Part shown: one piece after another, positions 1-64,000 of the stretch
Position numbering within the stretch: position 1 is the first letter of the stretch
How the letters are laid out: every line of letters starts with the position of its first letter
Assembly (NCBI GenBank): GCA_036630325.1
Contig: CP142729.1
Location: 1-64,000, forward strand
Origin: Vairimorpha necatrix
Taxonomy: Eukaryota
Direction: 5' to 3'
DNA: 64,000 nt
The notes under the pieces: generated by a model
Seen by the model: the letters and a program-made list of their open reading frames with translations, nothing else
Told to the model about the DNA's origin: nothing
The model's database searches: none
Position numbers and translations under genes: made by a program

Positions 1-1840
1 ACCTAACCTACCTACCTACCTAACCTACCTAACCTACCTACCTAACCTACCTACCTACCTAACCTACCTACCTAACCTACCTACCTACCTACCTAACCTA
101 CCTACCTAACCTACCTAACCTACCTAACCTACCTACCTAACCTACCTAACCTACCTAACCTACCTAACCTAACCTAACCTACCTACCTACCTAACCTACC
201 TACCTACCTACCTAACCTACCTAACCTAACCTACCTAACCTAACCTACCTACCTAACCTACCTAACCTACCTAACCTACCTAACCTAACCTACCTACCTA
301 ACCTACCTAACCTAACCTACCTAACCTACCTAACCTACCTAACCTAACCTACCTAACCTAACCTACCTAACCTACCTAACCTAACCTACCTAACCTACCT
401 AACCTACCTACCTAACCTACCTACCTAACCTACCTAACCTAACCTACCTAACCTACCTAACCTACCTAACCTAACCTACCTACCTAACCTACCTACCTAA
501 CCTACCTAACCTACCTAACCTACCTACCTAACCTACCTACCTAACCTACCTAACCTACCTAACCTAACCTACCTAACCTACCTAACCTACCTACCTAACC
601 TACCTAACCTACCTACCTAACCTACCTAACCTAACCTACCTACCTACCTACCTAACCTACCTACCTACCTAACCTAACCTACCTAACCTACCTACCTAAC
701 CTAACCTACCTAACCTACCTACCTACCTAACCTACCTACCTAACCTACCTAACCTACCTACCTAACCTACCTAACCTACCTACCTACCTAACCTACCTAA
801 CCTACCTACCTACCTACCTACCTACCTAACCTACCTAACCTACCTACCTAACCTACCTAACCTACCTAACCTACCTAACCTACCTACCTACCTACCTACC
901 TACCTAACCTACCTACCTACCTAACCTACCTAACCTACCTAACCTACCTAACCTACCTACCTACCTAACCTACCTACCTAACCTACCTACCTAACCTAAC
1001 CTACCTAACCTAACCTACCTACCTACCTAACCTACCTAACCTACCTACCTACCTAACCTACCTAACCTAACCTACCTACCTAACCTACCTAACCTACCTA
1101 ACCTACCTACCTAACCTAACCTAACCTACCTACCTAACCTAACCTACCTACCTAACCTACCTAACCTACCTAACCTACCTAACCTACCTACCTAACCTAC
1201 CTACCTACCTAACCTACCTACCTAACCTAACCTACCTAACCTACCTAACCTACCTAACCTACCTACCTAACCACCACCACCTACCTAACCTACCTACCTA
1301 CCTACCTACCTAACCTACCTAACCTACCTAACCTACCTAACCTACCTAACCTACCTAACCTACCTACCTACCTACCTAACTACCTAACCTACTACCTAAA
1401 CCTACCTACCTAACCTACCTAACTCTACCTAACCTACCTAACCTACCTAACCTAACCTACACCTACCCTAACCTACCTACCTACCTACCCTACCTACCTA
1501 CCTACCCTACCTAACCTAACCTACCTACCTAACCTACCTAACCTACCTAACCTACCTAACCTAACCTAACCTAACCTAACCTACCTACCTACCTACCCTA
1601 CCTAACCTACCTACCTACCTACCTAACCTACCACCTACCTAACCTACCTACCTACCTAACCTACCCTAACCCACCTACCTACCCTACCTAACCTAACCTA
1701 CCTACCTACCTAACCTACCTCTATCTAACCTACCTAACCTACCTACCCTACCTAACCTACCTAACCTAACCACCCTACCTACCCTACCTACCTACCTACC
1801 TACCTACCTAACTACCTACCTACCTAACATACAAACCTAA
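1..1840 (-). repeat. Terminal telomeric array of mixed TTAGG/TAGG units (CCTAA/CCTA on + strand)
   Basis: Continuous CCTA/CCTAA units from base 1, with the C-rich strand at the 5' end as expected for a left chromosome end. Pure to ~1270, then variant units (CCA, CCCTA, CTA) to ~1840. Confidence 0.95.
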
Positions 1841-2002: not shown

Positions 2003-5000
2003 TGTTATACATTTATTTAATAGGAAAGTTCAACCCTAACATCCCCCTCCAGACGTGTAGTCTCACGTTACAAGCTTCTAATTTATCATTTTATAATCTT
2101 TTAGGTCATAATGTCGTTTTTTAATGTATCTTTTGCTATCAGTCCTTACAATATAAGAATCATTCTCACACTTTCCCATTATTTTACCAACACTTGTAAA
2201 TCTTATTTTCATACATTTCATCTATTTACCCCAAGTTTTCTCTTCTTGCGATTCTCAAAGCCTGATCTACTTCAAATTTATCTCTTTCCTTTGTTTAAAA
2301 TTACTTGCATACACACCCTTTTTAACGTTTTCAATAAAGACTTCTTTTCCTTGTTCTTTACATGCTTCCATTGGTGTACATTTTATCGCTGTGTGTAAAA
2401 TGTTATAATAGGTTCTTAGCTTGTTCTAGTTTTTACTCTGGGTTTCCTTCTTTTTATTTAATCAATGATTCCCTTATTGTTCAAATACATCGTTCAATTT
2501 TCCATTGCTCTTATGAGCTTCTAAACCTACTTTCCATTGCATAATTCCGTTTTCTTAACACCAAGTTACAAACTTCTCACTGAGAAATTTCTTACCGTTA
2601 TCCGAAATATTCATCTGGGCATCCATCTTCATTTATCAAATATCCTAAAATTTTCGTATTAACATCACTTCCTCTATTTTCCATTTTTGCGCCCTATACT
2701 TTTCTTCTAAGTAGTCAATCCCTAATAGCAGGTATTTTTTGTTTTCCTCGATAACAATTACGTGTAAAGCTACTTTTTCTAATTTCTTAAATATAGTTAC
2801 AAAATTGCAACCTCCAGTCGTTTTTCTGTTATTAATGCACTATATTCCACAATTTTTTAGCGTTGTGGATATCAGGTCAAATAGCTGGTCAGTACAATCT
2901 TTGTTTTTCCTTATAATAAGGTCTTTTTCACTTCACGATGATTTAATTCCTCATGAACTCTGCGAATTTCTGTTCTCATTTATTTTTTTGTGTTGTATTT
3001 AATAATTTCTATTGTTGAGAACTTCCAATAGTTTTTGCCTTCTCTTTTAACCATGCGCTTTTTTTCTTTCCATTTAATTTGTTTTTGGTGCGTTTATCTC
3101 TTTCGCCTTTTCAATTACTTCGTTATTTTTAAATTGTCTACTAAGAGCATCCACATACATCATCAATTCTGTTTTTACATATTCAATAGTAAAATCGAAC
3201 TCTTGTATATATTCTATCCATCTCTTAATTATGTAATTATTAAAAAACGGTTTGTTTCTAATCTCGGCCATTCCTTTATGATTTGTCATTTATTGAAATT
3301 TTCTTCCCCCAAATCTGACTCGAATTTCTTTATTTCAAATAACACTGCCAACATCTCTTTTTCACTAATCGTATACTTTTTAGCTGTTGGTGTTAGCATT
3401 TTTGATGCCCATTGTATTAGAATCTACCTATCTTCCTTGTCTTCTTGCAGAAGTATAACTCCAATTCCCTTATCGCATGCACACGTTCTTACTCTAAATA
3501 TTTTTTTATCTATCTTCTATTTTTAATTTTTTCACATCCTTTAAATCCTCTTTGATATCCATAAAAGCTCTTTCCATATCTTGGGACCATTTTCATTTAC
3601 TATCTTTTTTTAGTGCTCTTGTAAGAAGCGCTGACCGATAAGCATAATGATGAATAAAATCTCTTAACCAGCCTGCCCGCTCCTCAACACTTCTAAGATC
3701 TTTTATGTTGTTAGGCTTTCTGTATTCTAATGTCTACTCCTATATATTTTTTCGGTTTAATGTCTTCTCAGTTAATTGTTACTCCAAGTAGTTTTTCTTC
3801 TCCTAATTTATATTGTATCTTTCTTGAGTTTACTTTTAATCCACATTCATTAAATTTTCGAATTACTTGTTTTAAAAAATTTTCTTGTATATTACTATCT
3901 CATGCATAAATAATAAAATCCATGTACACCTCAACACTCTTGCCTCTAAACTTATCTAAAACTCCGTTCATCACTCTTTGCATAATATGGGGAGCATTTT
4001 TTAATTTTTTACCATGCCATTCCATTCGTAAACTCTACCATTTATCTTAAAAGCTGTCTTATGTTTGTAAGCTCTCTCAATTTCTATATGATAGAATCTT
4101 TCCTTTAGGTCTATAACCATAAATACTTTAGAACCTTGCGTTGCTTTAATATGTCTCTAATCAATGGCAAATCATACGGATCTTTTTATTCCAGTTCATT
4201 ATAAGCCATCAAATTGCTTCTCAATTGTACTTTACCATTTGGTTTTTCTATGGGCTTTATTAGGCTTTTCCATTTGCTCTTTGTCTTTCTGATAATACCT
4301 CTACTTTCTAATAAATTAATATACTTTTCTAACTTTTCTCGGAGTTTATAAGGAATATTTTGTTTCTTTTGCACTACTTTTACTCATTGTTTTGTTTTAA
4401 AAGAACATTTTATCCCTGTTAAGTATTTTCTTTTCCCTCTGTCTTTTCACAATACCTCGAAAATTTTCCTTCTAATTCTTCATATTTATTAATATTTTTT
4501 CTTCTTTTATCTTGGTTTGTATTTTTTACATAAAAACTGTTTCTTGAGTTCTCTCTTTTTACCTCCACTGGTAGTCTCAATTTAAAATCAATTCATTTTT
4601 AATATTTTCATTTTACTTTTCCACAAATGCCAAAATATTTAACACTTTTATTTTCATTATTCTCTTCCTGTCTTCCTTTACGCTCCATACAACCTCTAGC
4701 TATATGTATAATTCTCCCACATATAAACCAATGTTTTTCTTCTCGTCTTTGATATTGAAAGTATCTTCCTGACACTGCTACAGTCCTAGTCAGTTATCCT
4801 TTCATCTTCTTTTTAATTTTTCCTTCATACCCTCTACCATATCTTCTAGTTCTCTACTCCTTATTTTTTCCTTGTTCTTATTCTCTTCCTCTTCAATAAC
4901 TAATTTATCAATTTCATCAATAATATTATTCCAATTAATCATAATGATTAAATTTTTATCAATAATAAAATCCTGAAGCTCAGAATTTACTTGTTTTATC

Positions 5001-5171
5001 GACTGCTTCGTTGTCTCATCTTTTTCTTTCTGCATTCTGATGATTGCTTCTACTCTCTGAGCTTCTTTTAGTAATTTTATCTTCTCTTAAACACAGGTCT
5101 CACTTGTTACCCTTTCGTCTTTTGTGTTTGCCATGTTATACATTTATTTAATAAAAGGTTCAACTTTAACA
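2003..5171 (-). mobile_element. Ty3/gypsy LTR retrotransposon, decayed, with 38-39 bp LTRs (copy A)
   Basis: LTRs at 2003-2041 and 5134-5171 (TGTTA...TAACA). 5-bp TSD TTATA at 1998-2002 and 5172-5176. PPT GGAGGGGGA (2050-2042) and PBS-like TGGCAAAC after the 5' LTR. Domain order gag-RT-RNaseH-integrase. Confidence 0.92.
2055..5134 (-). pseudogene. gag-pol pseudogene (Zn knuckle, reverse transcriptase, RNase H, integrase) with many stops and frameshifts
   Basis: Minus-strand fragments: FICGRIIHIARGC (knuckle); IPYKLREKLEKYINLLESRGIIR..IKPIEKPNGKVQL and EVYMD (RT); CDKGIGVILLQ, EKEMLAV, TNHK, RWIEYIQEFDFTIEY (RNase H); ISDNGKKF (integrase core). Confidence 0.9.
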
Positions 5172-8100
5172 TTATAATTAAAACACAAAGTATTTTTGGT
5201 GTAATTTTGCGAATAAATTTATGTAATAATATATTGTAAAAGTATGAAATTACTTCTTTAATTTGTAATATATTTCATTGTAAAAAAAAGTCATTTTTGT
5301 GTTTTAACATATTTCTTACTGGAAATATTCGTATTATACTAAAAAAAAATATTTTAGGGAATTATACAAATAACTTAAATCTCGAATGCTGTATTAACGC
5401 ATATATACAGACACAAAAGCTTATACTCTTGAGGAAAGCTTATGATAATCACTTTGAATAAAAAAATTTGATCATTATTCATAGAAAGTAAAAGGACGTA
5501 ACAATTTGTTAACATTAAGGAAAGATTCCAGTGTTTGTTTGAAAATACAATACTTATAACTAATTACATTTGTATATTTCAGTATAAAATTATGTTATAT
5601 TAAAATAGATCAATAGAAGTACTTAAGATTTATCAGATTAATATGATTTAATTAATTTTTATAAAATAAAATATTTTCGCAAAAATTTGTTCTTTTGAAT
5701 TTTTTATGAATATTTATATCTACTTGGCTGCTGCATAGGATGAGGCTTCTTCTAATGTACAATTCTATTTATCTATGTATTTGAACTGTCCAAAAAGTCT
5801 TTTAATATTACAAATGTTATTGTGTTTATTATTTATGTTCTCTTTGGGATTAATTTTTTATGGTAGAAAATATAATATTTTAAAAAAAAGAGGGAGTGAA
5901 GTTATTGGATAATTGAAAAATACATCCTATAAAAAATATATTTGATATGTGATCATAATGCCCAGGATATGTTTTGTTTGTACTTATAAATTTTCTTTTA
6001 TAACCGTAAGATTTACTTCATGCTTGATCTTCATATAATTTCAATTATGAAGAGAACTAGTTTGATATATTTTATAACCAGTTAAAATTGTTAAATTTTT
6101 GCGTAAAAAATTGCGAATAGTTTAAAAGTAACCTATCATTATCTATAAAAATGTTTTACATAATGTGTTATGTTTAAATGTTATTTTTTATGAATAAAAG
6201 TATTCATGTATTATTAAAAAATTTTAATTTTTTTATTAAATCATTAGATTGATTTCATTCTTTAAAAATCAAAATGTTTATTCCAAAAAAATTCATAAAG
6301 ATTTTTTTGTTTTCATATTTAGAATTTAATTTATCAATATATTATTATATTTTTTTAATCAATTAATATTTAAATTAAATTAAATTTTATAATTATTAGA
6401 AATCGTCTACTGCATCTATATTTATAATGTAATCGGGGTAATGCATTAAAATATTTTCTGTCATTTTTAAAGATAAGATTTGTTTTTTAATTTATATGTT
6501 CTTACATTAAATTTTTCTTAAATTTATATAAATATTTATTAATTAGTTGCATTGGGTTTGTTTATACTTTTTATTAACCCTTCAAGCTCTTATTGATTTA
6601 TATTTTTTTAATTCTTCGGTTAGTGTAAAATATTTGTTAATAAATTTACCAATTCTGTATTTGTTTTGTTTTAATTTTATCATAATTATAGTATTAATAA
6701 TAAATACGTGGAATATATGATGTTTACTAGAAAAATTCAAATGAAGAAATACGAAATTTATTTCCAGCCTACTTTTGTGTATAAATTTACAATTTGTATA
6801 AATATTGATTATCTTATCATTTGAAATGTATTTAATATGTTTTCTGACCATTATTAGATTTATTTCTTAATTATTTATCATTATTTTCATTGAAATAATT
6901 TTTTGTTTTGATATTTTATAATTTTTTTACAGTCTATAACCAAAAATTTCAAAATACTGTTGTAATAAATGATAACAGAATGAAATGTCGTTTGTTGTGT
7001 TCCTCTATATATGTTTATATTTTATTTTCGTTGTATGTCTTTATGTTTCTTTGAGACTTTACTTTTTATAAATGAATTTTCTTGATATTATGTGGTTTAT
7101 ATAAGCTACATTTTTATAATAATTTTAAAAACTTAAGTTAAGCATAAAAAAATGAGTTTTTAGATATAAAGAACATTTTAATGCTTCCTTGCGATAAATA
7201 GTATTTAATGTTTTACCATAAGAATAATTTAAATCATTTTTAAAACTTTATGAAATAATGATTGTAATTTAATATTTTTAATCTACAATTTTCTAAAACC
7301 CTCCGAGATATGGTTTCTTTTGAAATACAAATATATAAAAATTTTTAATAGATTATTTTTAGTATTTTTATAAATTTTTCGTTATTGAATCATATGTTTC
7401 TCGTGTAGGTTGTATATATCATCATGTTTAATATCTAGGTGTAATATATTGCATTTTAAATTTTCGATTGATACATTATTTTTAAAAAAAGATAAAGATG
7501 TTATATGTTCTAAAACTATTACTTATACTAATCAGTCGTATGTGTATTATTATGAGCGAAATTTGAAAATATAAAATTTTATAATGATCAAAAAATATTA
7601 TTTTCGTTATAGTGGTTGAGACTTCGCGCTTCAAAAGTCGTAAAAATTTAATTGTATAAAAATTTTCTTCTTTTCACTTATCTAGAATTTACTTTAACGT
7701 TTAGTTTGAATATTTTTTATAACTATTCTAGATATTAACATTAATTTTCAAAACGAGTTTTAGTCCAATACGTTTTTTTTTAAAAAAAGTTATCCTACTA
7801 CTTTAAATATATTTTTTTTTAATTATTTTTGTAATATTAACCTCAAATATCATTATTGAAATTGCATTTCGAAATATATTAGTTTTTTCAAAGATTTTTA
7901 TTGGCATTATTTTATTTTACTTGTAGGTCAATCTTTGTGTATTAAAAATTTATATTGAAGTATAACTTTTCTTGACCTTTTCATACTTAGAATTAATCTA
8001 ACGCATTTTATTGAACTATACAATATATAATATCAAAATTAAATTTCAATTTTTCTTCAAAAATATTGACTATAACAGTTATATAAAATTTTTGATTCAA

Positions 8101-13936: not shown

Positions 13937-15087
13937 GGTTAAATTGCGATGTTACCCCCCCCCCCCACCCCTAAAAAAATAAAAAAAAGGGGGAAAAATA
14001 AAAAAAGGGGAAAAAATAAAAAAAAGGGGAAAAAATAAAAAAAAGGGGGAAACAAAAAGGAATAAAATTATACCCCTAAAACTAACATCAAAAATTTTAA
14101 TAAATTAATATACCAAAAATAGGAATTAATTACATTTCTTCTTGAAAAAAATATATTAAAGGTATCAATATGCAATAAGTGCATGACACCCATGACCAAA
14201 ATTAGAAATAATTTGGACAAATATCGTTGTTACTTACGACGAAATGGGAGAAAATGCTCAAACAAAGGTAACATTTACAAAGAAAGCATTTTTAAAAGTT
14301 CTAGATTAGATATCGAAGATCTTTTAATTTAGCTGTGTGAATGGTTTAAGGTGTAAGCAATGTTTCGGCTACTATCGAAATGGATATAGATAGTAGTACC
14401 GTATCTCGCTAGTTTACGCGTTTTAATAACGCTGTATTCTTATCCTATTTCAACTACCTTCAAAACAAAACCATAGGAGGTTTAAATTACGTAGTTAAAA
14501 TAGACGAGACATTGCTTGTTAAAAGTAAAAACCATAACAGTAGAATCCTTCAATACAAGTTTGGGCCGTTGGTGGAGTTGTACGAGGAGACAGCAATTCT
14601 TTTTTTTCAAAATTGTTAAAAATCGATCAAGAACTACTCTTGTCGATTTAATAAAACGAAAAATCGCACCTGGATCTACAATTATTACTGATTGTTGGCG
14701 GGGGTATAAAGGGGTTTCGGAACTATGTCTGGATTATAACTATTTACATTTAACTGTAAATCATAGCCAAAATTTTGTAAATCCAACAACAGGCGCCCAC
14801 ACCCAAACAATTGAGGGAATGTGGTCTGTAATTAAAAGGGAATTGCGCAAAGAAGGAACAAGCCATGGTTCTTTAATGAATCTCATTCGAAAACTTTATA
14901 TAGCTCGTTTTAAGTTAATTTATAGAGAATCACTACTTGAAAAAATGTTATGTTTTTTGAGATTGATAATATATCATTTTTAAATTACGATTTAGGGCCC
15001 GAATTTGATTTTGAATTGATTGAATAAATTTTGTTTCCCCCTTTTTTTTATTTTTTTAGGGGTGGGGGGTAACATCGCAATTTAACC
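13937..15087 (+). mobile_element. Merlin (IS1595/ISXO2-like) DNA transposon 1
   Basis: TIRs GGTTAAATTGCGATGTTACCCCCC and its reverse complement. 8-bp TSD AAAATATT at 13929-13936 and 15088-15095. Empty site with a single AAAATATT at 43161-43168 in copy B. Confidence 0.95.
14140..14983 (+). pseudogene. Merlin DDE transposase pseudogene
   Basis: The C-terminal frame has IITDCWRGY, HLTVNHSQNFVNPTTGAHTQTIEGMWS. The upstream Zn-ribbon and KIDET regions are broken by stops and frameshifts. Start coordinate is approximate. Confidence 0.88.
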
Positions 15088-18836: not shown

Positions 18837-20083
18837 GGTTAAGTTCTCGACTTACCCCCCCCCCCACCCCTAAAAAAAATAAAAAAAAATAAAAAAGGGG
18901 GGAAAAATAAAAAAAAGGGGAAAAAATAAAAAAAGGGGAAAAAATAAAAGAAATAAAAAATTTGACCCATAATGAGAATTAAAGAATTTAGAAAACTCAT
19001 CTATAAAAAAAATGAGTTAATGCAATTTTTAATTGCAAAAAACATTTTGAGGGTCCCTATGTGCAATAAATGCAATATACCAATGACTCAAAATCGGACC
19101 AACACTGAAAACTATCGTTGTTATTCAAGGCGTGATGGTAAAAAATGTTCTAACAAAGGAACCATAATGAAACAAAGCGTTTTTAAGAACTCAAAATTGC
19201 CTATTGAGGATCTTTTAATATTGCTTTGCGAATGGGTAAAGGGTTCAAGTAATTTGGCCGCCACGTTAGAACTTGATATAGGTAAATGTACGGTATCAAG
19301 ATGGTTTACGCGTTTTAATAACGCCGTGTACGTCTCTTATTCAACATATATAAACAATCAAACGATTGGCGGCGTCGGTTGTATTGTTGAAATTGATGAA
19401 ACTTTACTTGTAAAAAGTAAAAACCATGCGGGAAGGGTTCTTCAATATCAAGTATGGGCAGTTGGAGGCGTTGTGAGAGGAAATGCAAATTCTTTTTTCT
19501 TTGAGATCGTAGAAAATAGAACAAGAGCTACTCTTGTTGAATTAATTACAAGAAAAATTGCTCCGGGGACCACAATTGTGACAGATTGTTGGCGTGGATA
19601 TTGTGATATTCAAACAATCTGTGTAGAATATGAGTATCTACATTTGACTGTGAATCACAGCCAAAATTTTGTTGATAATATAACTGGTTCATACTCAGAC
19701 TATAGAGGGAATGTGGTCGGTTATTAAAAGAGAACTAAGAAAAGGAGGAACTAGTCATGGTACTATTATGAATCTTGTAAGAAAGATTTACATTAACAGA
19801 TTCAAATTAATATATCGTGAAAATCTATTGGATAAAATGTTAGAATTTTTTCAAATAGGTAATTTTAGTATTGTAGCTTATGATATTATTCCTGAAATAG
19901 ACTTTACAATTGTGGAATAATTTTTTTTGTTTTTTTTGGGGGGTAAGGGGGGTTAAGTCGAGAATTAAACGTTTTTTTATTTTTTTTTATTTTTTCCCCT
20001 TTTTTTATTTTTTCCCCTTTTTTTATTTTTTCCCCTTTTTTTATTTTTTTTGGGGTGGGGGGGGGTAAGTCGAGAACTTAACC
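18837..20083 (+). mobile_element. Merlin (IS1595/ISXO2-like) DNA transposon 2
   Basis: TIRs GGTTAAGTTCTCGACTTACCCCCC plus inverted subterminal A/G repeats. 8-bp TSD ATAATTTG at 18829-18836 and 20084-20091. Empty site at 46890-46897 in copy B. Confidence 0.96.
18972..19920 (+). pseudogene. Merlin DDE transposase (DDE_Tnp_IS1595-like), near intact with a single frameshift at ~19689
   Basis: ORFs 18972-19727 and 19711-19920. N-terminal CxxC..C..C ribbon, VEIDET, IVTDCWRGY, HLTVNHS. The sequence act ggt t cat act cag act ata gag gga atg tgg is TG[A]HTQTIEGMW lacking 2 nt. Confidence 0.92.
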
Positions 20084-26146: not shown

Positions 26147-27537
26147 ATTTAGACATAACATAATTTTTGTAAATATGACAATTCTTATTCAAGCTTATTT
26201 TTTTAGAAATTCTCATTAAATTATGCAAAAAATTATATATAATTATATAATATAAGTATCTTGATTTTGTAAGATGTTATTTATTTGAAATATGTCAATT
26301 TCTTTAATCTTATTTTCCATGCCCTCTCTTGGAAATTTTTTTTCTAAATACTTGTTGTAGCCAATTAAATCTGCCAATTTGTGAGAATATGATTGATCAG
26401 TATTTAATTAGCTACGATACTATCTACATTAAGTATGAAAATTATATTTTTTATAAAATTTCAATGTTAAATTCATATATACGTACTTATGATATTTTTC
26501 TATTATTCTTAATAGAAATTGTGTTTATTTACGATACATTTATATAATCGCTCCCTCGTATTAAATAAATAAAATATAAAATCTTCATGATATTTAAATT
26601 TCGTTTTATAAATATTAAAGTGTTGTATTTTTATACAGTATTGTTTTCCAATGGGGTATTGGTTGTTTTTTCTCCACAATTTTATTCTTTCTAATGTACC
26701 TCGATGTATTACAATAATAAGAATTCATCTTTAAATTCAAAAAATCTTTGTTATTGATTTATACACAAATTATATTCTGATTTGTTTAATTAAAAATCAT
26801 TTTATTCTATGTGTTGATACCGGCAATAATTATGCAATTGAATGTTTTAATTACATAAAAATACTTATATATTATTTGTTATTTTGAAAGTTCTATTATT
26901 TAAATACAATTATTTTTACTGCACTAATATTTATGTATATTTTTCTTGAATTTAAAGTTTTTATTTTGTACTTTTATATATATATATATATATATATGCA
27001 GATAGATACCCTTTAAAAAAAAAATTAAATCATGTATGTAATAAAGGTTTTAATTAAAATGAAAAAACTTCACAATCTAGTTACATATACTACATAAGTT
27101 ATTTTTACTAGTTTTTATGAGATGTCAATTTCTCCTTTTTTCGTGTTCATAATCTCTCTCATGTACAAATATACATCGATACTTTCCATTAGCCAAAAAA
27201 ATTAGAAATATTGCTGATACTTAAAGACTTGTATATATAATTAGATGTAATTGTAATTAAAATATAGATTGTTTCTGAAGTTTTTCAAATATTTAATCAT
27301 TATAATAAAAATTTTTACCAATTAGAATACATTTGTTAATTTTATTTTTATGTTAGAATGTTAAATCGTTAAAACGCCCACGGTTACACTAGAAACTTTT
27401 GGAATCATTCTGTTTTATAATCTTCATAATTATAACATACTTTGATTTACTTAAGAAAAAATAAATCATATAAACTAATAAGTACGCATATATATACACA
27501 CACATTCCTTGTTATCACATAAGACCGTACGATAATA

Positions 27538-28045
27538 TGCATTTTCAGCTGTTCTTAATTTTTTCATATTTTTCTAGATTTGTCTTCTTATATATATATA
27601 CAAGAAAGAGATGGAAAATTAACAAATTTCATAAAAGCTTTAAAAACAAAAAAAGATACAAAAAAGTACTTATATAACAAATATATGAATTTATATGCAT
27701 TTTCAGCTGTTCTTTTTTTTTTCATATTTTGCAAGATTTGTCTTCTTGTATATATATATATACAAGAAAGAGATGGAAAAATAACAAATCTTTTATATGG
27801 CTCAAAAACAAAAAAAGACACACAAAGTTCACTTATATAACAAATATATGAATTTATATGCATTTTCAGCTGTTCTTAATTTTTTCATATTTTGCAAGAT
27901 TTGTCTTCTTATATATATACAAGAAAGAGATGGAAAAATAACAAATCTTTTATATGGCTCAAAAACAAAAAAAGACACACAACGTTCACTTATATACCAA
28001 TAATATATATATATTTATATGTAGTCTTAGGCGTTCTAAATTTTA
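27538..28045. repeat. ~160-bp tandem satellite, 3 units plus a partial unit
   Basis: Unit starts at 27538, 27696, 27859 and 28020. Core agatttgtcttctt(at)n caagaaagagatggaaaa. Confidence 0.93.
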
Positions 28046-28667
28046 CGACGTTGTTATTTCCTTCTTATATGTTTATAAAGTTATAGTTAATATCTATAAA
28101 AAACATTTGAAATTATTTTTCTCTTAAAAATATCATCAAGAAAACCAATACTTCTAACTTGACATACATATACTATACATGTTAATTTTTTTTGTTATGA
28201 AGTAAAGTTAATTTTCTTCTTCTTTCAAGTTCATTATCCTTCTTATATATACATATATATATTTCAATTGATTTTTTAAAAAGAGTATAAGTTCTGTTTT
28301 TCTTAGTACCTCAATGATTTGAATATATTAACCAATATTTCGATACAGTATGTTCTCTTTGTTGTTAAAATACGTTATGTTAAAGCTTTTTTAATAATTT
28401 GGCTTCATAGTGTATATAGTATATTATTGTTTTATAAGTACAATTTAAAAGGTTGAATTTCTATATTTACACTATTAAAAATTATGGTTAATTCTTTGGC
28501 ACAACTTCTTCATACATCAATCATCTAAAAACTTAAAGGGCTAACAAACCATAATTAATGATCTAAATATACAAAAATATAAATAAATAGAAAATACTTT
28601 CCTCCCTTTGTTTTGCGGACTTAAATTGTTTCTTAAGTTAAGAATTGGTCTTTTTCTAAATAAAAAA

Positions 28668-32696: not shown

Positions 32697-32718
32697 CCTA
32701 CCTAACCTACCTACCTAA
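32697..32718 (-). repeat. Interstitial telomeric tract
   Basis: Perfect cctacctaacctacctacctaa, immediately followed by the same cacgtaagc junction seen at 1841. Confidence 0.9.
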
Positions 32719-32877: not shown

Positions 32878-35800
32878 TGTTATACATTTATTTAATATGA
32901 AAGTTCAACCCTAAAATCCCCCACCAAACGGGTAGTCTCACGTTACAAGCTTCTAATTTTCCATTTTTATAATCTTTTAGGTAATAATGTTGTTTCTTAA
33001 TGTATCTTCATCTATCAGTCCTTACAATATAAGAATTATTCTCAGACTTTCCCCTCCTTTTATCAACATTTGTAAATCTTCCTTTCATACTTTTCATCTA
33101 TTTACCCTTGTTTTCTCTTATTGCAATTCTCACAGCCTGATCTACTTCAAATTTTTCTCTATGCCTTAATTTAAAATTACTTGAATACACACCCTTTTTA
33201 TTGTTTTCAATAAAGACTTATTTTCCTTGTTCTTTCCATGCTTCAATTGTGTTGAATTAATCGCTGTGTGTAAGAATTATTAGTTCTTACAGCTTGTTCT
33301 AGTTTTTCCTCTGGGTTTCCTTCTTTTTCATGGATCATCGATTCCCTTATTGTTCAAATACATCGTTCTATTCTTCCATTACTCCTATGAGCTTCTAAAC
33401 ATACTCTCCATTGCATAATTTCGTTTTCTTTACACCAAGTTACAAACTTCTCACTGAAAATTCTTTGCCGTTATCCGTAATATATTCATCTGGGCATCTA
33501 TTTTTCTAAAATTTTAGTAATAACATCACATCCCTTAAATTCCATCTTTGCGTGACATACTCTTGTTCTAAGTAGTCCATTCCTAATAGCACGTATCTTT
33601 CTATTTCCCCAATATCCATTACGTCATAAGCTACTTTTCTAATTTCTTAAATGCCAAAAAAAATTGCCACCTCCGATCGTTTTTCTGTTATTAATGCTAC
33701 ATACTTAACAAACTTTAGCGATGTGGTTATCTGGTCCTTCATACCTTGCCAGTACAGTCTTTGTTTTTCCTTATAATAAGTTTTTTTCACTCCTAGATGA
33801 TTTAATTCATCATGAACTCTGGAATTTCTGTCTCTTGTTAGTTCGTTGTGTAGTAGTTTTTTAATTTCTCCTGTTGAGAACTTCAAATATTTTTTACCTT
33901 CTCTTTTAACATGCGCTTTATTTCTTTTTCTTTCATCTGTTTTTGGGCCGTTTCTACTTTCGCTTTTTTACTTTCACTTCGTTTTTTTTAAATTGTCTAC
34001 TAAGAGCATCCACATACGTCATCAATTTTCCTTTTACATATTCAATAGTAAAATCGAACTCTTGTATATATTTCTATTTCTTCATTATGTAATTGTTGAA
34101 AAACGGTTTGTTTCTAATCTCGGCCAGTCCTTTATGATTTTTCATTTAATGAAATTTGCTTCCCTCAAATCGGATTCGAATTTCTTTATTCCAAATAACA
34201 CTGCCAACATCACTTTTTCATTAATCATATACCTTTTTTCTGTTGCTGTTAACATTTTTGATGCCCATTGTATCTGATTCCACTTTCCTTCTTTGTCTTC
34301 TTGCAATAGTATGGCTCAAGTTCCCGTATCGTATGCATCTGTTCTTACTCTACACATTTTTTTACTATCTACCATTTTTAATTTTTTCACATCCTTTAAA
34401 CCCTCTTTGATATCCATAAGAGCTCTTTCCATATCTTCGGACCATTCCCATTTAACATCTTTTTTTAGTGCTTCTGTAAGAAGCTCTGGCCGATAAGCAT
34501 AAAGGGAATAAAATCTGTAAACCGGCTTGCACGTCCCTCAAATCTTCTAAGATTTTTTATGTTGTTAGGCCTTCTGTATTCTAATGTCTTTTGCTTTTTA
34601 ATTTTGTTAGGTGTAATGTCTTAACCGTTAATTGATACTCCAGTAGTTTTACTTCTCCTTTATATTGTATCTTTTTTAAGTTTCTTTAAATCCACATTCG
34701 TTAAATTTTCGAATTACTTGTTTTAAAAAATTTTCTTGTATATTACTATCTCATGCATAAATAATAATATCATCCATGTACACCTCAACACTCTTGCCTC
34801 TAAACTTATCTAAAACTCCGTATATCACTCTTTGCATAATATGGGAAGCATTTTTAAATCCCTTTACCATGCCATTCCATTCGTAAACTCTATCATTTAT
34901 CTTTAAAGCTGTCTTATGTTTGTAAGTCTGTCAATTTCTATATGATAGAATCCTTCCTTTAGGTCTATAACCATAAATACTTTAGAATCTTGCGTTCCCC
35001 AATAATATCTCTAATCAATGGCAATTCATACGGATCTTTTTATTCCAGTTCATTATAAGCCATCAAATTGCTTCTCAATTTTACTTCACCATTTGGTAAT
35101 TTTATGGGCTTAATTGGGCTTATCCATTCGCTCTTTGTCCTTCTGATAATACCTCTACTTTAATAAATTAATATACTTTTCTCGATTATTATAAGAAATA
35201 TTTTTTACTTTTTTACTACTTTCACTCATTGTTTTGTTTTAAAAGAACATTTTATCCCTGTTAAGTATTTTATTTACTCTTCGTCTTTTCCTAATGCCTC
35301 AGGAAATTTAATTTCCAATTCTTCATATTTATTAATATTTTTTCTTCTTTTATCTTGGTTTGTATTTTTTACATAAAAACTGTTTCTTGAGTTCTCTCTT
35401 TCTATCTCCACTGGTAGTCTCAATTTAAAATCATTTCCTTTTAATATTTTCATTTTACTATTATCACGAATCCCAAAATATTTAACACTTTTATTTTCAT
35501 TATTCTCTTCATGTCTTCCTTTACGCTCCATACAACCTCTAGCTATATGTATAATTCTTCCACATATAAAACAATGTTTTTCTTCTCGTCTTTGATATTG
35601 AAAGTTTCTTCCTGGCACTGCTACAGTCCTAGTCAGTTTTTCTTTACTTTTCTTTTTAATTTTTCTTTCATAACATCTACCATATCTTCTAGTTCTCTAC
35701 TCTTATTTTTTCCTTGTTCTTAATCTCTTCCTCTCAACAACTAATTTATCAATTTCATCAATAATATTATTCCAATTAATCATAATGATTAAATTTTTAT

Positions 35801-36014
35801 CAAAAATAAAATCCTGAAGTTCAGAACTTACTTGTTTTATCGACTGCTTCGTTTTCACATGTTTTACATCTTTCTGCATTCCGATGATTGCTTCTACTCT
35901 CTGAGCTTCTTTTAGTAATTTTCTATCTCCTAAACACAGGTCTCACTTGTTACCCTTTCGTCTTTTGTGTTTGCCATGTTATACATTTATTTAATAGGAG
36001 GTTCAACTTTAACA
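32878..36014 (-). mobile_element. Ty3/gypsy LTR retrotransposon with 38-39 bp LTRs (copy B), decayed
   Basis: LTRs at 32878-32916 and 35977-36014, with the same TTATA TSD. CFICGRIIHIARGC knuckle, intact YMDD at ~34780-34769, and HDELNHLGVKKTY..LYWQGM integrase Zn-binding region. Confidence 0.92.
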
Positions 36015-52946: not shown

Positions 52947-54337
52947 ATTTAGACATAACATAATTTTTGTAAATATGACAATTCTTATTCAAGCTTATTT
53001 TTTTAGAAATTCTCATTAAATTATGCAAAAAATTATATATAATTATATAATATAAGTATCTTGATTTTGTAAGATGTTATTTATTTGAAATATGTCAATT
53101 TCTTTAATCTTATTTTCCATGCCCTCTCTTGGAAATTTTTTTTCTAAATACTTGTTGTAGCCAATTAAATCTGCCAATTTGTGAGAATATGATTGATCAG
53201 TATTTAATTAGCTACGATACTATCTACATTAAGTATGAAAATTATATTTTTTATAAAATTTCAATGTTAAATTCATATATACGTACTTATGATATTTTTC
53301 TATTATTCTTAATAGAAATTGTGTTTATTTACGATACATTTATATAATCGCTCCCTCGTATTAAATAAATAAAATATAAAATCTTCATGATATTTAAATT
53401 TCGTTTTATAAATATTAAAGTGTTGTATTTTTATACAGTATTGTTTTCCAATGGGGTATTGGTTGTTTTTTCTCCACAATTTTATTCTTTCTAATGTACC
53501 TCGATGTATTACAATAATAAGAATTCATCTTTAAATTCAAAAAATCTTTGTTATTGATTTATACACAAATTATATTCTGATTTGTTTAATTAAAAATCAT
53601 TTTATTCTATGTGTTGATACCGGCAATAATTATGCAATTGAATGTTTTAATTACATAAAAATACTTATATATTATTTGTTATTTTGAAAGTTCTATTATT
53701 TAAATACAATTATTTTTACTGCACTAATATTTATGTATATTTTTCTTGAATTTAAAGTTTTTATTTTGTACTTTTATATATATATATATATATATATGCA
53801 GATAGATACCCTTTAAAAAAAAAATTAAATCATGTATGTAATAAAGGTTTTAATTAAAATGAAAAAACTTCACAATCTAGTTACATATACTACATAAGTT
53901 ATTTTTACTAGTTTTTATGAGATGTCAATTTCTCCTTTTTTCGTGTTCATAATCTCTCTCATGTACAAATATACATCGATACTTTCCATTAGCCAAAAAA
54001 ATTAGAAATATTGCTGATACTTAAAGACTTGTATATATAATTAGATGTAATTGTAATTAAAATATAGATTGTTTCTGAAGTTTTTCAAATATTTAATCAT
54101 TATAATAAAAATTTTTACCAATTAGAATACATTTGTTAATTTTATTTTTATGTTAGAATGTTAAATCGTTAAAACGCCCACGGTTACACTAGAAACTTTT
54201 GGAATCATTCTGTTTTATAATCTTCATAATTATAACATACTTTGATTTACTTAAGAAAAAATAAATCATATAAACTAATAAGTACGCATATATATACACA
54301 CACATTCCTTGTTATCACATAAGACCGTACGATAATA

Positions 54338-55960
54338 TGCATTTTCAGCTGTTCTTAATTTTTTCATATTTTTCTAGATTTGTCTTCTTATATATATATA
54401 CAAGAAAGAGATGGAAAATTAACAAATTTCATAAAAGCTTTAAAAACAAAAAAAGATACACAAAAAGTACTTGTATAACAATAATGTGTATTTATATGTA
54501 GTCTTAGATGTTCTTAATTTTTTCATATTTTTCGAGATTTGTCTTCTTATATATATATATATACAAGAAGGAGATGGAAAAATGCCAAATTTCATAAATG
54601 CTTTAAAAACAAAAATAGATATTCAAAAAGTACTTGTATTACAATAATGTGTATTAATATGCATTTTCAGCTGTTCTTAATTTTTTCATATTTTGCAAGA
54701 TTTGTCTTCTTATATATATATATACAGGAAGGAGATGAAAAAATAACAAATCTTTTAAATCGCTCAAAAACAAATAAAGATACTCAAGTGTCACTTATAT
54801 AACAATAATATAGATTTATATGTAGTCTTAGATGTTCTTAATTTTATATATTTTTCGAGATTTGTCTTCTTATATATATATATACAAGAATAAGATGGAA
54901 AAAATAACAAATTCCATAAATGCTTTAAAAACAAAAAAAGATACACAAAAAGTACTTGTAAAACAATAATATGAATTTATATGTAGTCTGAGATGTACTT
55001 AATTTTTGTATATTTTTCAAGATCTGTCTTCTTATATATATACAAGAAGGAGATGAAAATTATCAAATTTCTTAAAAGCTTTAAAAACAAATAAAGAAAC
55101 ACAAAAAGTACCTGTATAACTATAATATGAATTTATAAGCATTTTCAGAAGTTCTTAATTTTTTCATATTTTTCAAGATTTGTCTTCTTATATACATATA
55201 TACAAGAAGGAGATGAAAAATTATCAAATTTCTTAAAAGCTTTAAAAACAAATAAAGAAACACAAAAAGTACCTGTTTAACTATAATATGAATTTATATG
55301 TAGTCTGAGATGTACTTAATTTTTTTATATTTTTCAAGATCTGTCTTCTTATATACATATATACAAGAAAGAGATGGGAAAAATCAAATTTCATAAATGC
55401 TTTAAAAACAATTAAAGTACCCAGGTGTCACTTATATAACAATAATATGAATTTATAAGCATTTTCAGAAGTTCTTAATTTTTTCATATTTTTCAAGATT
55501 TGTCTTCTTATATATATATACAAGAAAGAGATGAAAAATGGCAAATTTCATAAATGCTTTAAAAACAATTAAAGTACCCAGGTGTCACTTATATAACAAT
55601 AATATGAATTTATAGACATTTTCAGAAGTTCTTAATTTTTTCATATTTTTCAAGATTTGTCTTCTTATATACATATATACAAGAAGGAGATGAAAAATGG
55701 CAAATTTCATAAATGCTTTAAAAACAATTAAAGTACCCAGGTGTCACTTATATAACAATAATATGAATTTATAAGCATTTTCAGAAGTTCTTAATTTTTT
55801 CATATTTTTCAAGATTTGTCTTCTTATATACATATATACAAGAAGGAGATGAAAAATGGCAAATTTCATAAATGCTTAAAAAACAAAAAAAGATACACCA
55901 AAAGAAACTTATATAACAATAATATAGATTTATATGTAGTCTTAGATGTTCTAAATTTTA
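54338..55960. repeat. ~160-bp tandem satellite, 10 units plus a partial unit
   Basis: Unit starts at ~54338, 54497, 54660, 54821, 54982, 55138, 55299, 55458, 55616, 55774 and 55935. Confidence 0.95.
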
Positions 55961-56573
55961 AACATTGTTATTTCCTTCTTATATGTTTATCAAGTTATAG
56001 TTACTTATCTATAAAAAACATTTAAAATTATTTTTCTTTTAAAAATATCATCAAGAAAACCAATACTTCTTACTTTACATACATATACTATACATGTTAA
56101 TTTTTTTGTTTAGAAGTAAAGTTAATTTTCTTCTTCTTTCAAGTTCATTATCCTTCTTATATATACATATACATCTTTACAATTGATTTTTTAAATAGAG
56201 TATAAGTTCTGTGTACCCCAATGATTTGAATATATTAACCAATATTCAGATACAGTATGTTTCTGTTTGTTGTTAAAATACGTTATGTAGGGCTTTTTTT
56301 AATAATTTAGCTTCTTAGTGTATATAGTATATTATTGTTTTATAATTACAATTTAAAGGTTAAATTTCTACATTTACACTATTAAAATTATGGTTATTTA
56401 TTGACACAACTTCTTCATACATCGGTCATTTAAAAACTCAAAGGCCTAACAAACCATAATTGATGATCTAAATATACAAAAATATAAATAAATAGAAAAT
56501 ACTTTGCATTGCTTTGTTTTGCGGACTTAAATTGTTTCTTGAGTTAAGAATCGGTCTTTTCTAAATAAAAAAA

Positions 56574-63045: not shown

Positions 63046-63587
63046 CTTAAAAGATTTATTGAGTTAATTTTCAATTATGTTTAGATATTCATAGCACAGC
63101 TTTCCCCGGTATCGCTCATGGGATTCAGCTCTTCACAGACTTTGGTTTCTGTGGAATTATTAATGTTTTCCAACTTCACTTTAGCAGCTTCATTCCCCTT
63201 TGCCGACACCACTTCTTTAACAGTCGCCATATTCGCTAGTGCGCTTACAGCTCTAGCCACTTCTTCTTCTCCTGCATCCTCCTGATCGTATCCTCGTCGT
63301 CGTTCCAAAGAGATGGACTCTAGAGTCTTCTTCATCACAATAGACTGGATATATGCTTCCAGGTAGGGTTGGATTTCTAGCTCCCTGATGTACTTTCTGT
63401 GATATTTGGTCACCACTCCATCCCATGTCATTACATAAGGAACTATTCTTGTCCGGGATTTATGTATTAGTCCCAGTTCATTTGCAAGAAGGTCATATTT
63501 TCTTAGTTTTTCATTCTCAACTATAGTAAGTCGATCCTGGTTGGTTATACCAACTTCAACTATTAAAATTTCTTTCTTCTTCTTGTC
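63046..63587 (-). mobile_element. Young 5'-truncated RLE-type non-LTR retrotransposon (family I; R2/R4/NeSL-like group) with an open C-terminal frame
   Basis: Open frame ILIVEVGITNQDRLTIVENEKLRKYDLLANELG..IVPYVMTWDG.. to the stop at 63081 (restriction-like endonuclease E...KxxKY motif). 14-bp TSD AAGGAGATATTAAA at 63032-63045 and 63588-63601. Confidence 0.9.
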
Positions 63588-64000
63588 AAGGAGATATTAA
63601 ATATATATATATATATATAAATTATATTTTTAAAACAAGAAAATATAATTTAAGTAGTTTTATTGACGCGATTATAGGAATAAATGTCCGAATTATCTAT
63701 TTTCTCGTTTAAAATTTTTTTCATACAGTTAAAAAGCTGGATGTTGTTTGTTTAATTATGCGTTGTGTCAATATATCATGTTTAAGCTAATTTAGATAGA
63801 TAAAATATATAGTGTAGTGAAAAACTCAAAAATAACAGGCAATAGAGATAAAAAAATTTTACCTCAGTATTATTATTATAAATGTTGCACATAATTTTCT
63901 AATATCATTAGAAATACAAAAATTTATAAAATCATTTGTACAAGCGTGGTAGGTGTAATTTTAAGTAACTAAAAAAAGCCTTAAGCAAGTCTTAAGACAA

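Follow-up and report, generated by a model that had tools for sequence, protein, structure and literature searches.

A decayed Ty3/gypsy-type element with 38-bp long terminal repeats at a contig end of Vairimorpha necatrix, and its probably protease-less relatives

The first 64,000 nucleotides of Vairimorpha necatrix contig CP142729.1 (NCBI GenBank assembly GCA_036630325.1, forward strand; hereafter the window) carry a dead Ty3/gypsy-type retrotransposon at positions 2003 to 5171, bounded by long terminal repeats (LTRs) of only 38 and 39 bp. We consider it probable, at about 0.8, that this is the decayed copy of a miniaturized microsporidian Ty3/gypsy element with a 38-bp LTR and one frame running from gag to integrase without a protease. 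The window is the left end of contig C4 in the surveyed genome of 15.0 Mb and 12 contigs (24 ends). An initial annotation, made from the letters of the window, had already described the short repeats and the domains between them; to these the analysis adds a gag start within the LTR, the lack of a protease, a Gag of about 140 amino acids (aa), an A-N5-T target site, multiplication with subtelomeric DNA, and a relative with 50-bp LTRs.

Terminal repeats of 38 bp in the dead copy and its relatives

On the plus strand, the two direct repeats run from TGTTA to TAACA, span 39 bp (2003 to 2041) and 38 bp (5134 to 5171), and are 4 mismatches and 1 indel apart; their ends fit the published consensus TGTTRNR..YNYAACA (PMC3601003). 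The pentamer TTATA stands at both outer borders, toward the telomere (1998 to 2002) and on the inner side (5172 to 5176), as a 5-bp target-site duplication (TSD), and the chance of two random local 5-mers agreeing is about p = 0.005. The element is oriented on the minus strand. Its 3' LTR (2003 to 2041), 1 base over the 38-bp family length, is abutted by a polypurine tract (PPT; 2042 to 2050), and its 5' LTR (5134 to 5171) by a primer binding site (PBS; 5121 to 5133) that begins with TGG, lies within the gag frame and matches tRNA-Arg(ACG) plus CCA at 12 of 13 bases. When 33 tRNA types were compared, the tRNA-Arg match was 13 of 13 in the independent copy L018 and in sister-family copies, and the best non-Arg match reached 8 to 9 of 13. 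The repeats, TSD, PPT and TGG-initiated PBS of the initial annotation are all borne out by these comparisons.

The gag, reverse transcriptase (RT), RNase H and integrase domains that it placed between the repeats were likewise found by tblastn and by alignment to a copy of the sister family described below, but their frames are broken. In minus-strand order they are a shrunken Gag (4731 to 5143) of about 125 aa ahead of a degraded CCHC zinc knuckle (4689 to 4730), a knuckle-to-RT linker (4476 to 4688), RT (3512 to 4475), RNase H (3150 to 3507), and an integrase with HHCC and DDE core (2090 to 2975). RT and RNase H were assigned by Pfam on the sister copy and mapped from it, as was the knuckle by position; the integrase was placed by tblastn and landmarks from the sister, in which Pfam recognizes rve and Integrase_H2C2. 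Integrase follows RT, and the Ty1/copia order with integrase before RT was not found. Relative to the sister copy, the window copy has 19 stops and 10 frame changes over 12 aligned pieces, its longest stretch without stops is 94 aa, and Pfam gave nothing informative on four of its short frames. Among named homologues, Nosema and Vairimorpha proteins come closest, and the annotations are 17.6-, opus- and Tf2-like Pol.

The stronger evidence for LTRs of this length comes from a sister family that is 67% identical to the window copy in DNA (2025 of 3006 columns). At least 40 dispersed copies, 98 to 100% alike, were found (40 scored of 230 candidates, the copy number being a lower bound), and a search with the sister LTR gave 83 genome matches against 0 in the control. 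Both ends were checked for 30 of the 40 copies, and every one of the 30 has 38-bp LTRs and a perfect 5-bp TSD. These insertions are independent: 22 different TSDs occur among them, and their flanks are unrelated. Intact relatives with long LTRs, and homology extending past the repeats, were both sought; instead, the LTRs of copies whose frames are full-length measure 38 bp, and in 30 of 30 cases similarity ends where the repeats do. The LTR pairs are identical in 26 of the 30, and in two copies a variant base of one LTR recurs in the other, as would be expected when reverse transcription rebuilds the LTRs. A stop-free frame of 1003 to 1011 aa is present in 15 of the 40 copies, which sets the family apart from non-coding elements of the TRIM (terminal-repeat retrotransposon in miniature) kind. 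Differences between sister and window copy amount to 0.26, 0.22 and 0.56 at codon positions 1, 2 and 3, and this third-position excess indicates that the window lineage was once under protein selection.

The window copy's own family (40 of 199 candidates scored, all counts being lower bounds) gives the same picture. Independent old insertions, L018 and L115, end at the same places and have their own TSDs, and L119 and L121 are probably independent insertions with the same ends (flanks compared by eye). The proposal that the element integrated with its short LTRs therefore holds for both families: the 38-bp LTRs are genuine and not an artefact of decay, and the sister family was recently amplified. 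That longer LTRs were eroded to the present repeats, or that the element is a deletion derivative, is extremely improbable and is ruled out by the 30 sister insertions: the window copy is indeed old, its repeats differ at 5 positions and other families of the same genome have LTRs of 57 to 350 bp, but PBS and PPT abut the repeats directly and young sister copies with 1003- to 1011-aa frames carry the same 38 bp with TSDs right at their ends.

No solo LTR was seen among the 83 LTR matches, and the three unpaired or odd matches that were fetched all adjoin a PBS or PPT. In the sister family, 38 bp may be too short for recombination between LTRs. At C2:1174105-1180326, an element of a family with 49-bp LTRs is apparently nested in a young 38-bp-family copy, at an LTR spacing of 6.2 kb, which indicates that both families were recently active.

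Protease, Gag and phylogeny

The RT-RNase H sequences of 48 rows were placed in a tree (quick search, SH-aLRT support only, midpoint root, without named reference elements). All 23 rows lacking a protease fall into a single branch (SH-aLRT 100), here called the clade, which is sister to families with LTRs of 57 to 87 bp (98) and is nested among protease-bearing microsporidian families. Within it, the window copy groups with the sister family and two Nosema granulosis proteins (99). A metagenome scan added 1 distant locus.

Several comparisons point to the loss of the protease. Of 12 family representatives, 10 gave a Pfam match to an aspartic protease, several of these below the curated cut-off, and no protease match was obtained in the 38- and 49-bp families. 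The D[ST]G motif occurs in 19 of the 20 representatives of other families and in 0 of 22 clade proteins, and it is absent from all three frames of the window copy's linker. All 10 of the longer-LTR families tested in the same genome keep both a protease and a longer Gag. The linker itself measures about 40 aa in the sister family and about 70 codons in the window copy, and a linker of about 40 aa would leave no room for a protease. A profile search of representatives was swamped by zinc-knuckle matches; in 16 of its 150 rows the match covered the whole Gag, and none of these 16 showed a protease where the sequence passes the knuckle (by eye). Because a protease appears to be missing, we file the clade as a derived variant of Ty3/gypsy and not as a typical one.

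Gag is about 140 aa long in the clade, with about 125 aa ahead of the knuckle compared with about 200 in the sister clade, a comparison that suggests it is too short for a two-domain capsid. The predicted model (predicted local distance difference test, pLDDT, 88) has three helices and one 55-residue helix followed by the CCHC. Atlas gave Retrotrans_gag clusters at 0.84 for Gag, a lead only, and a profile aligned the conserved Gag helix to the C-terminal part of the human immunodeficiency virus (HIV) capsid in a match helped by the knuckle. When clade Gag was compared with the Gag of other families by hhalign, only the knuckle was shared. Among the rows listed in a fold search with the Gag model there was no capsid, the best being an unrelated helical bundle (Z 6.8; root mean square deviation, rmsd, 2.6; 74 aligned); the helical core likewise gave an unrelated helical bundle as its best match (Z 6.3, rmsd 2.7, 74 aligned), and Foldseek with model or core against PDB and BFVD returned no match at E<=0.001.

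How the enzymes would work without a protease of their own can be read in two ways. We lean toward a reading in which the Gag remnant keeps the polyprotein, uncut or trimmed by the host, on the RNA and in which RT and integrase act within it, because the three enzyme domains (RT, RNase H and integrase) are conserved, the linker is free to vary, and Gag has diverged from that of possible helpers. A less probable explanation, which nevertheless deserves weight, is that the element is partly non-autonomous and supplies its own RT and integrase while borrowing a protease, and perhaps a capsid, from a protease-bearing Ty3/gypsy of the same genome. At least 10 such families with long frames and identical LTRs are at hand there, the nucleocapsid (NC) and integrase (IN) of Ty3 are released by proteolysis (PMC5371799), and a single frame gives Gag and Pol at 1:1. 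A spliced Gag-only RNA finds no canonical GTAAGT donor near the Gag end, the sole GTAAGT in two families lying in the integrase part. However, the linker varies in length and sequence over 18 homologues with no conserved cleavage site visible, the sharing of the knuckle alone with sister-clade Gag makes co-assembly less likely, and RT, RNase H and IN are under strong selection.

LTR contents, target sites and a possible replication cycle

The 38-bp LTR is densely packed. In the 5' LTR, a pyrimidine run (C-run) at nucleotides (nt) 14 to 19 is followed by ATTAAA at 20 to 25, AATAAA at 24 to 29 and an in-frame ATG at 29 to 31. The gag frame begins at this ATG (5143 to 5141 in the window), meets a second in-frame ATG at 5134 to 5132 and runs on through the PBS. 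In other families, with LTRs of 49 to 350 bp, 39 of 39 rows (38 insertions) have an in-frame ATG that falls within the LTR or on its final base. Microsporidian genes are described as having 5' untranslated regions (UTRs) of less than 7 nt and a CCC motif just 5' of the start codon, and host-type genes as having an AAATTT-like or A-rich signal upstream of CCC and loose 3' processing (PMC2803860). Together with the in-frame ATG, this agrees with the earlier suggestion that the element fits a host with very short promoters and UTRs. The TATTAAA heptamer, which the initial annotation took for a TATA-like signal, is unlikely to be a TATA box, as it stands downstream of the C-run, the wrong side for such a role, and 4 to 10 nt before the ATG; it would be better read as a start region and poly(A) signal. 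We infer from these positions a transcript start at about LTR nt 18 to 28, which would leave at most about 20 nt for the repeated (R) and unique 5' (U5) regions. R regions of 10 to 11 nt occur in Sire and mouse mammary tumor virus (MMTV; PMC3601003).

In the cycle that we propose, RNA polymerase II would start within the 5' LTR just past the C-run, as in host genes with near-zero 5' UTRs, and a unique 3' region (U3) of about 17 to 27 nt would follow from that position. The RNA would end after ATTAAA/AATAAA in the 3' LTR, or read through. The minus strong-stop DNA primed by tRNA-Arg would reach about 20 nt at most and would jump to the 3' copy; the PPT would prime the plus strand, and integrase would insert the element, so that the element's own RT and integrase would do the work. 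Strong-stop DNAs are usually longer than 20 nt, and so short a product comes near the RT footprint. A bolder version, which we regard as unlikely, is a self-sufficient element with neither protease nor capsid shell, in which the uncut polyprotein would bind RNA through a Gag remnant made of coiled coil and knuckle, make the strong-stop DNA of 20 nt or less, and integrate. Its 38-bp LTR would be near the lower limit and would escape recombination between LTRs.

Several points weigh against the proposal of a miniaturized, protease-less element. The strong-stop DNA of at most about 20 nt is the step that our model leaves unexplained, and the borders of U3, R and U5 as well as the start site are placed from sequence. 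Proteases evolve faster than the other domains, and profiles frequently fail to detect them (PMC3248453). The tree comes from a quick search, has no bootstrap support values, and contains rows picked by likeness to the sister family. Every genome in which the clade was seen in context also has protease-bearing families, and among the at least 28 near-full-length copies of the window copy's own family the longest frames are only 65 to 188 aa.

The target sites follow a rule of their own. An A precedes and a T follows the TSD (A-N5-T) in all 30 of the sister copies checked and in 7 of 7 copies of the 49-bp family, compared with 6 of 31 in other families and 12 to 20% in the background. The sister TSDs are 91% AT, and the AT content of the sister flanks over 15 nt is 0.82 upstream and 0.84 downstream. 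One explanation, doubtful in our judgment, is that the LTR is too short to be the whole promoter and that an AT-rich upstream element is borrowed from the insertion site. Only 13 to 14 nt lie ahead of the C-run, where LTRs of 49 to 87 bp hold an AT-rich tract; with insertion into the AT-rich A-N5-T target, a TATA-like heptamer comes to stand about 30 nt ahead of the ATG; and host-type genes have the AAATTT-like or A-rich signal upstream of CCC mentioned above. The AT preference is symmetric, however, as expected from integrase alone, and therefore provides no evidence of promoter borrowing, and the same A-N5-T rule is followed by the 49-bp family, whose LTR contains an AT tract.

Other features of these sequences were recorded alongside. 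A 14-nt motif directly upstream of the PPT (2051 to 2064 in the window, minus strand) is kept across the protease-less families at coding and non-coding positions alike; motif plus PPT gave 149 genome matches and 0 in the control, and by eye the motif is also present in Anncaliia algerae retro L. It could form a 4-bp stem, which is not significant against shuffles, and sequences in the LTR or before the PPT fold no better than shuffles into a hairpin (z -0.4 to 0.7). The 49-bp family ends in TA (L098, L099, L103 and L109) and an 87-bp family in AA (L086, L095 and L096) instead of CA, both with perfect TSDs. By eye, the PBSs of other families (L061 to L140) match the 3' ends of tRNA-Pro(AGG), Ala(AGC), Ser(AGA/TGA) and Leu(TAA).

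Subtelomeric spread and comparison with known elements

The window copy lies about 170 bp from a telomere array of mixed units (1 to 1835, minus strand; 233 TAGG, 159 TTAGG and 10 other units). For microsporidian telomeres, the part covered of PMC13174016 names TTAGGG, TTAGG and TTAG, and not TAGG. At least 44 DNA matches to the own family were found, at least 28 of them near full length, and 20 of the copies listed are placed no more than 4 kb from a contig end and cover 20 of the 24 ends. These end copies are all oriented toward the telomere, 160 to 229 nt from the repeat array, and four inner copies are likewise followed by telomere repeats.

Nevertheless, this distribution was produced by duplication and not by insertion. 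Of the 28 full-length copies listed, 27 have common flanks on both sides and a common TSD, which denotes one insertion event and not 27, and most of them also share the extra base in the 3' LTR. Flank identity is 0.81 to 1.00 over the downstream 150 nt and, over the upstream 1 kb, 0.81 to 1.00 in 26 copies and 0.67 in one. The subtelomeric copies are 84 to 100% alike (median 87%), and their nearest neighbor shifts along the element, as in patchy gene conversion. Differences among the 27 are 0.13, 0.12 and 0.12 at codon positions 1, 2 and 3, and this flat profile indicates that they decayed neutrally. One old insertion died and was then multiplied with its subtelomeric block by DNA recombination. 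That the family targets telomeres is highly improbable: the telomere-facing copies near 20 of 24 ends, 160 to 229 nt from the array, suggest it, but the shared flanks, TSD and extra base, the neighbor switching and the even divergence rule it out, independent own-family copies and the sister family sit in the chromosome interior, and independent insertions in telomere repeats were not found.

The window itself contains a second copy of the same insertion, 87% identical (32878 to 36014, minus strand), which follows a 22-nt telomere relic (32697 to 32718). It belongs to a tandem repeat of a subtelomeric unit of about 31 kb (1841 to 28045 versus 32719 to 54846), with pieces 87 to 93% identical. 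Units of about 160 bp are arrayed in tandem at 27535 to 28077 and 54333 to 55998, and their copy number differs between the block repeats. Yeast Y' elements are subtelomeric blocks whose tandem units are parted by telomere repeats, and the arrangement here resembles Y' arrays; relics also occur past inner copies on C3 and C7. The subtelomeric segmental duplications of Encephalitozoon cuniculi (PMC4704409) are likewise mosaic blocks common to chromosome ends. Unlike either, the outermost piece of the block here is a dead retrotransposon. Elsewhere in the window, a Merlin/ISXO2-type transposase frame occupies 18972 to 19727 (plus strand; Pfam DDE_Tnp_IS1595, E 1e-7), a similar transposase remnant lies at 14504 to 14980 (plus strand), and a candidate 171-aa frame at 63084 to 63596 (minus strand) resembles by eye the endonuclease end of a non-LTR retrotransposon.

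These elements may set a lower bound on LTR content, with integrase ends, promoter, start codon and poly(A) signal fitting into 38 bp in a recently multiplied family. They also offer a natural system for examining two textbook requirements of replication, cleavage of Gag-Pol by the element's own protease and a two-domain capsid. LTR finders run with a minimum of 100 bp, a default setting, would overlook the clade, although at least 149 of its 3' ends are present in this 15-Mb genome.

Ty3 of Saccharomyces cerevisiae differs from the clade in its LTRs of about 340 bp, its gag-pol frameshift, its protease and its two-domain capsid, and the Nbr elements of Nosema bombycis are reportedly single-polyprotein Ty3/gypsy elements of the same general layout. 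With Ty3 the clade shares domain order, tRNA priming, two strand transfers and a single zinc knuckle (PMC5371799). The microsporidian single-polyprotein Ty3/gypsy groups likewise have one gag-pol frame, RT-RNase H-IN, a tRNA PBS, a PPT, a 5-bp TSD and an ATG in the LTR (PMC4202319). The nearest precedent is Anncaliia algerae retro L of Parisot et al. 2014 (PMC4202319), which has a 50-bp LTR, a length of 3127 bp and a single ORF (open reading frame) from nt 32. Its ORF starts within the LTR as in the clade, and by eye it has both LTRs, a TGG PBS, an RT that comes after the knuckle with no protease in between, and the pre-PPT motif seen in the clade. The main text of that paper notes the single polyprotein and does not contain the word "protease", and LTR length is not discussed in the parts covered. 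In its Table S1, the LTR of retro S is given as 45 bp and reads about 81 nt by eye in the sequence file; retro S is therefore not a shorter precedent. Our literature search, which did not extend to Repbase or to most subscription papers, turned up no publication that deals with such short LTRs or with elements of this kind losing their protease.

TRIMs and other short non-autonomous LTR elements have very short terminal repeats, a PBS and a PPT and encode nothing, whereas the clade encodes RT, RNase H and integrase under selection. DIRS elements and LINEs (long interspersed nuclear elements), used here as working analogies, replicate without a protease, and LINE ORF1p combines a coiled coil with CCHC knuckles; DIRS elements, however, have a tyrosine recombinase and no TSD, and LINEs have no LTRs, whereas the clade has a DDE integrase and true LTRs. 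Compared with retro L, the LTR described here is 38 bp long and has no AT-rich tract ahead of the C-run. What is new is thus an LTR of 38 bp, below the 50-bp precedent, in a protease-less microsporidian Ty3/gypsy clade with a shrunken Gag.

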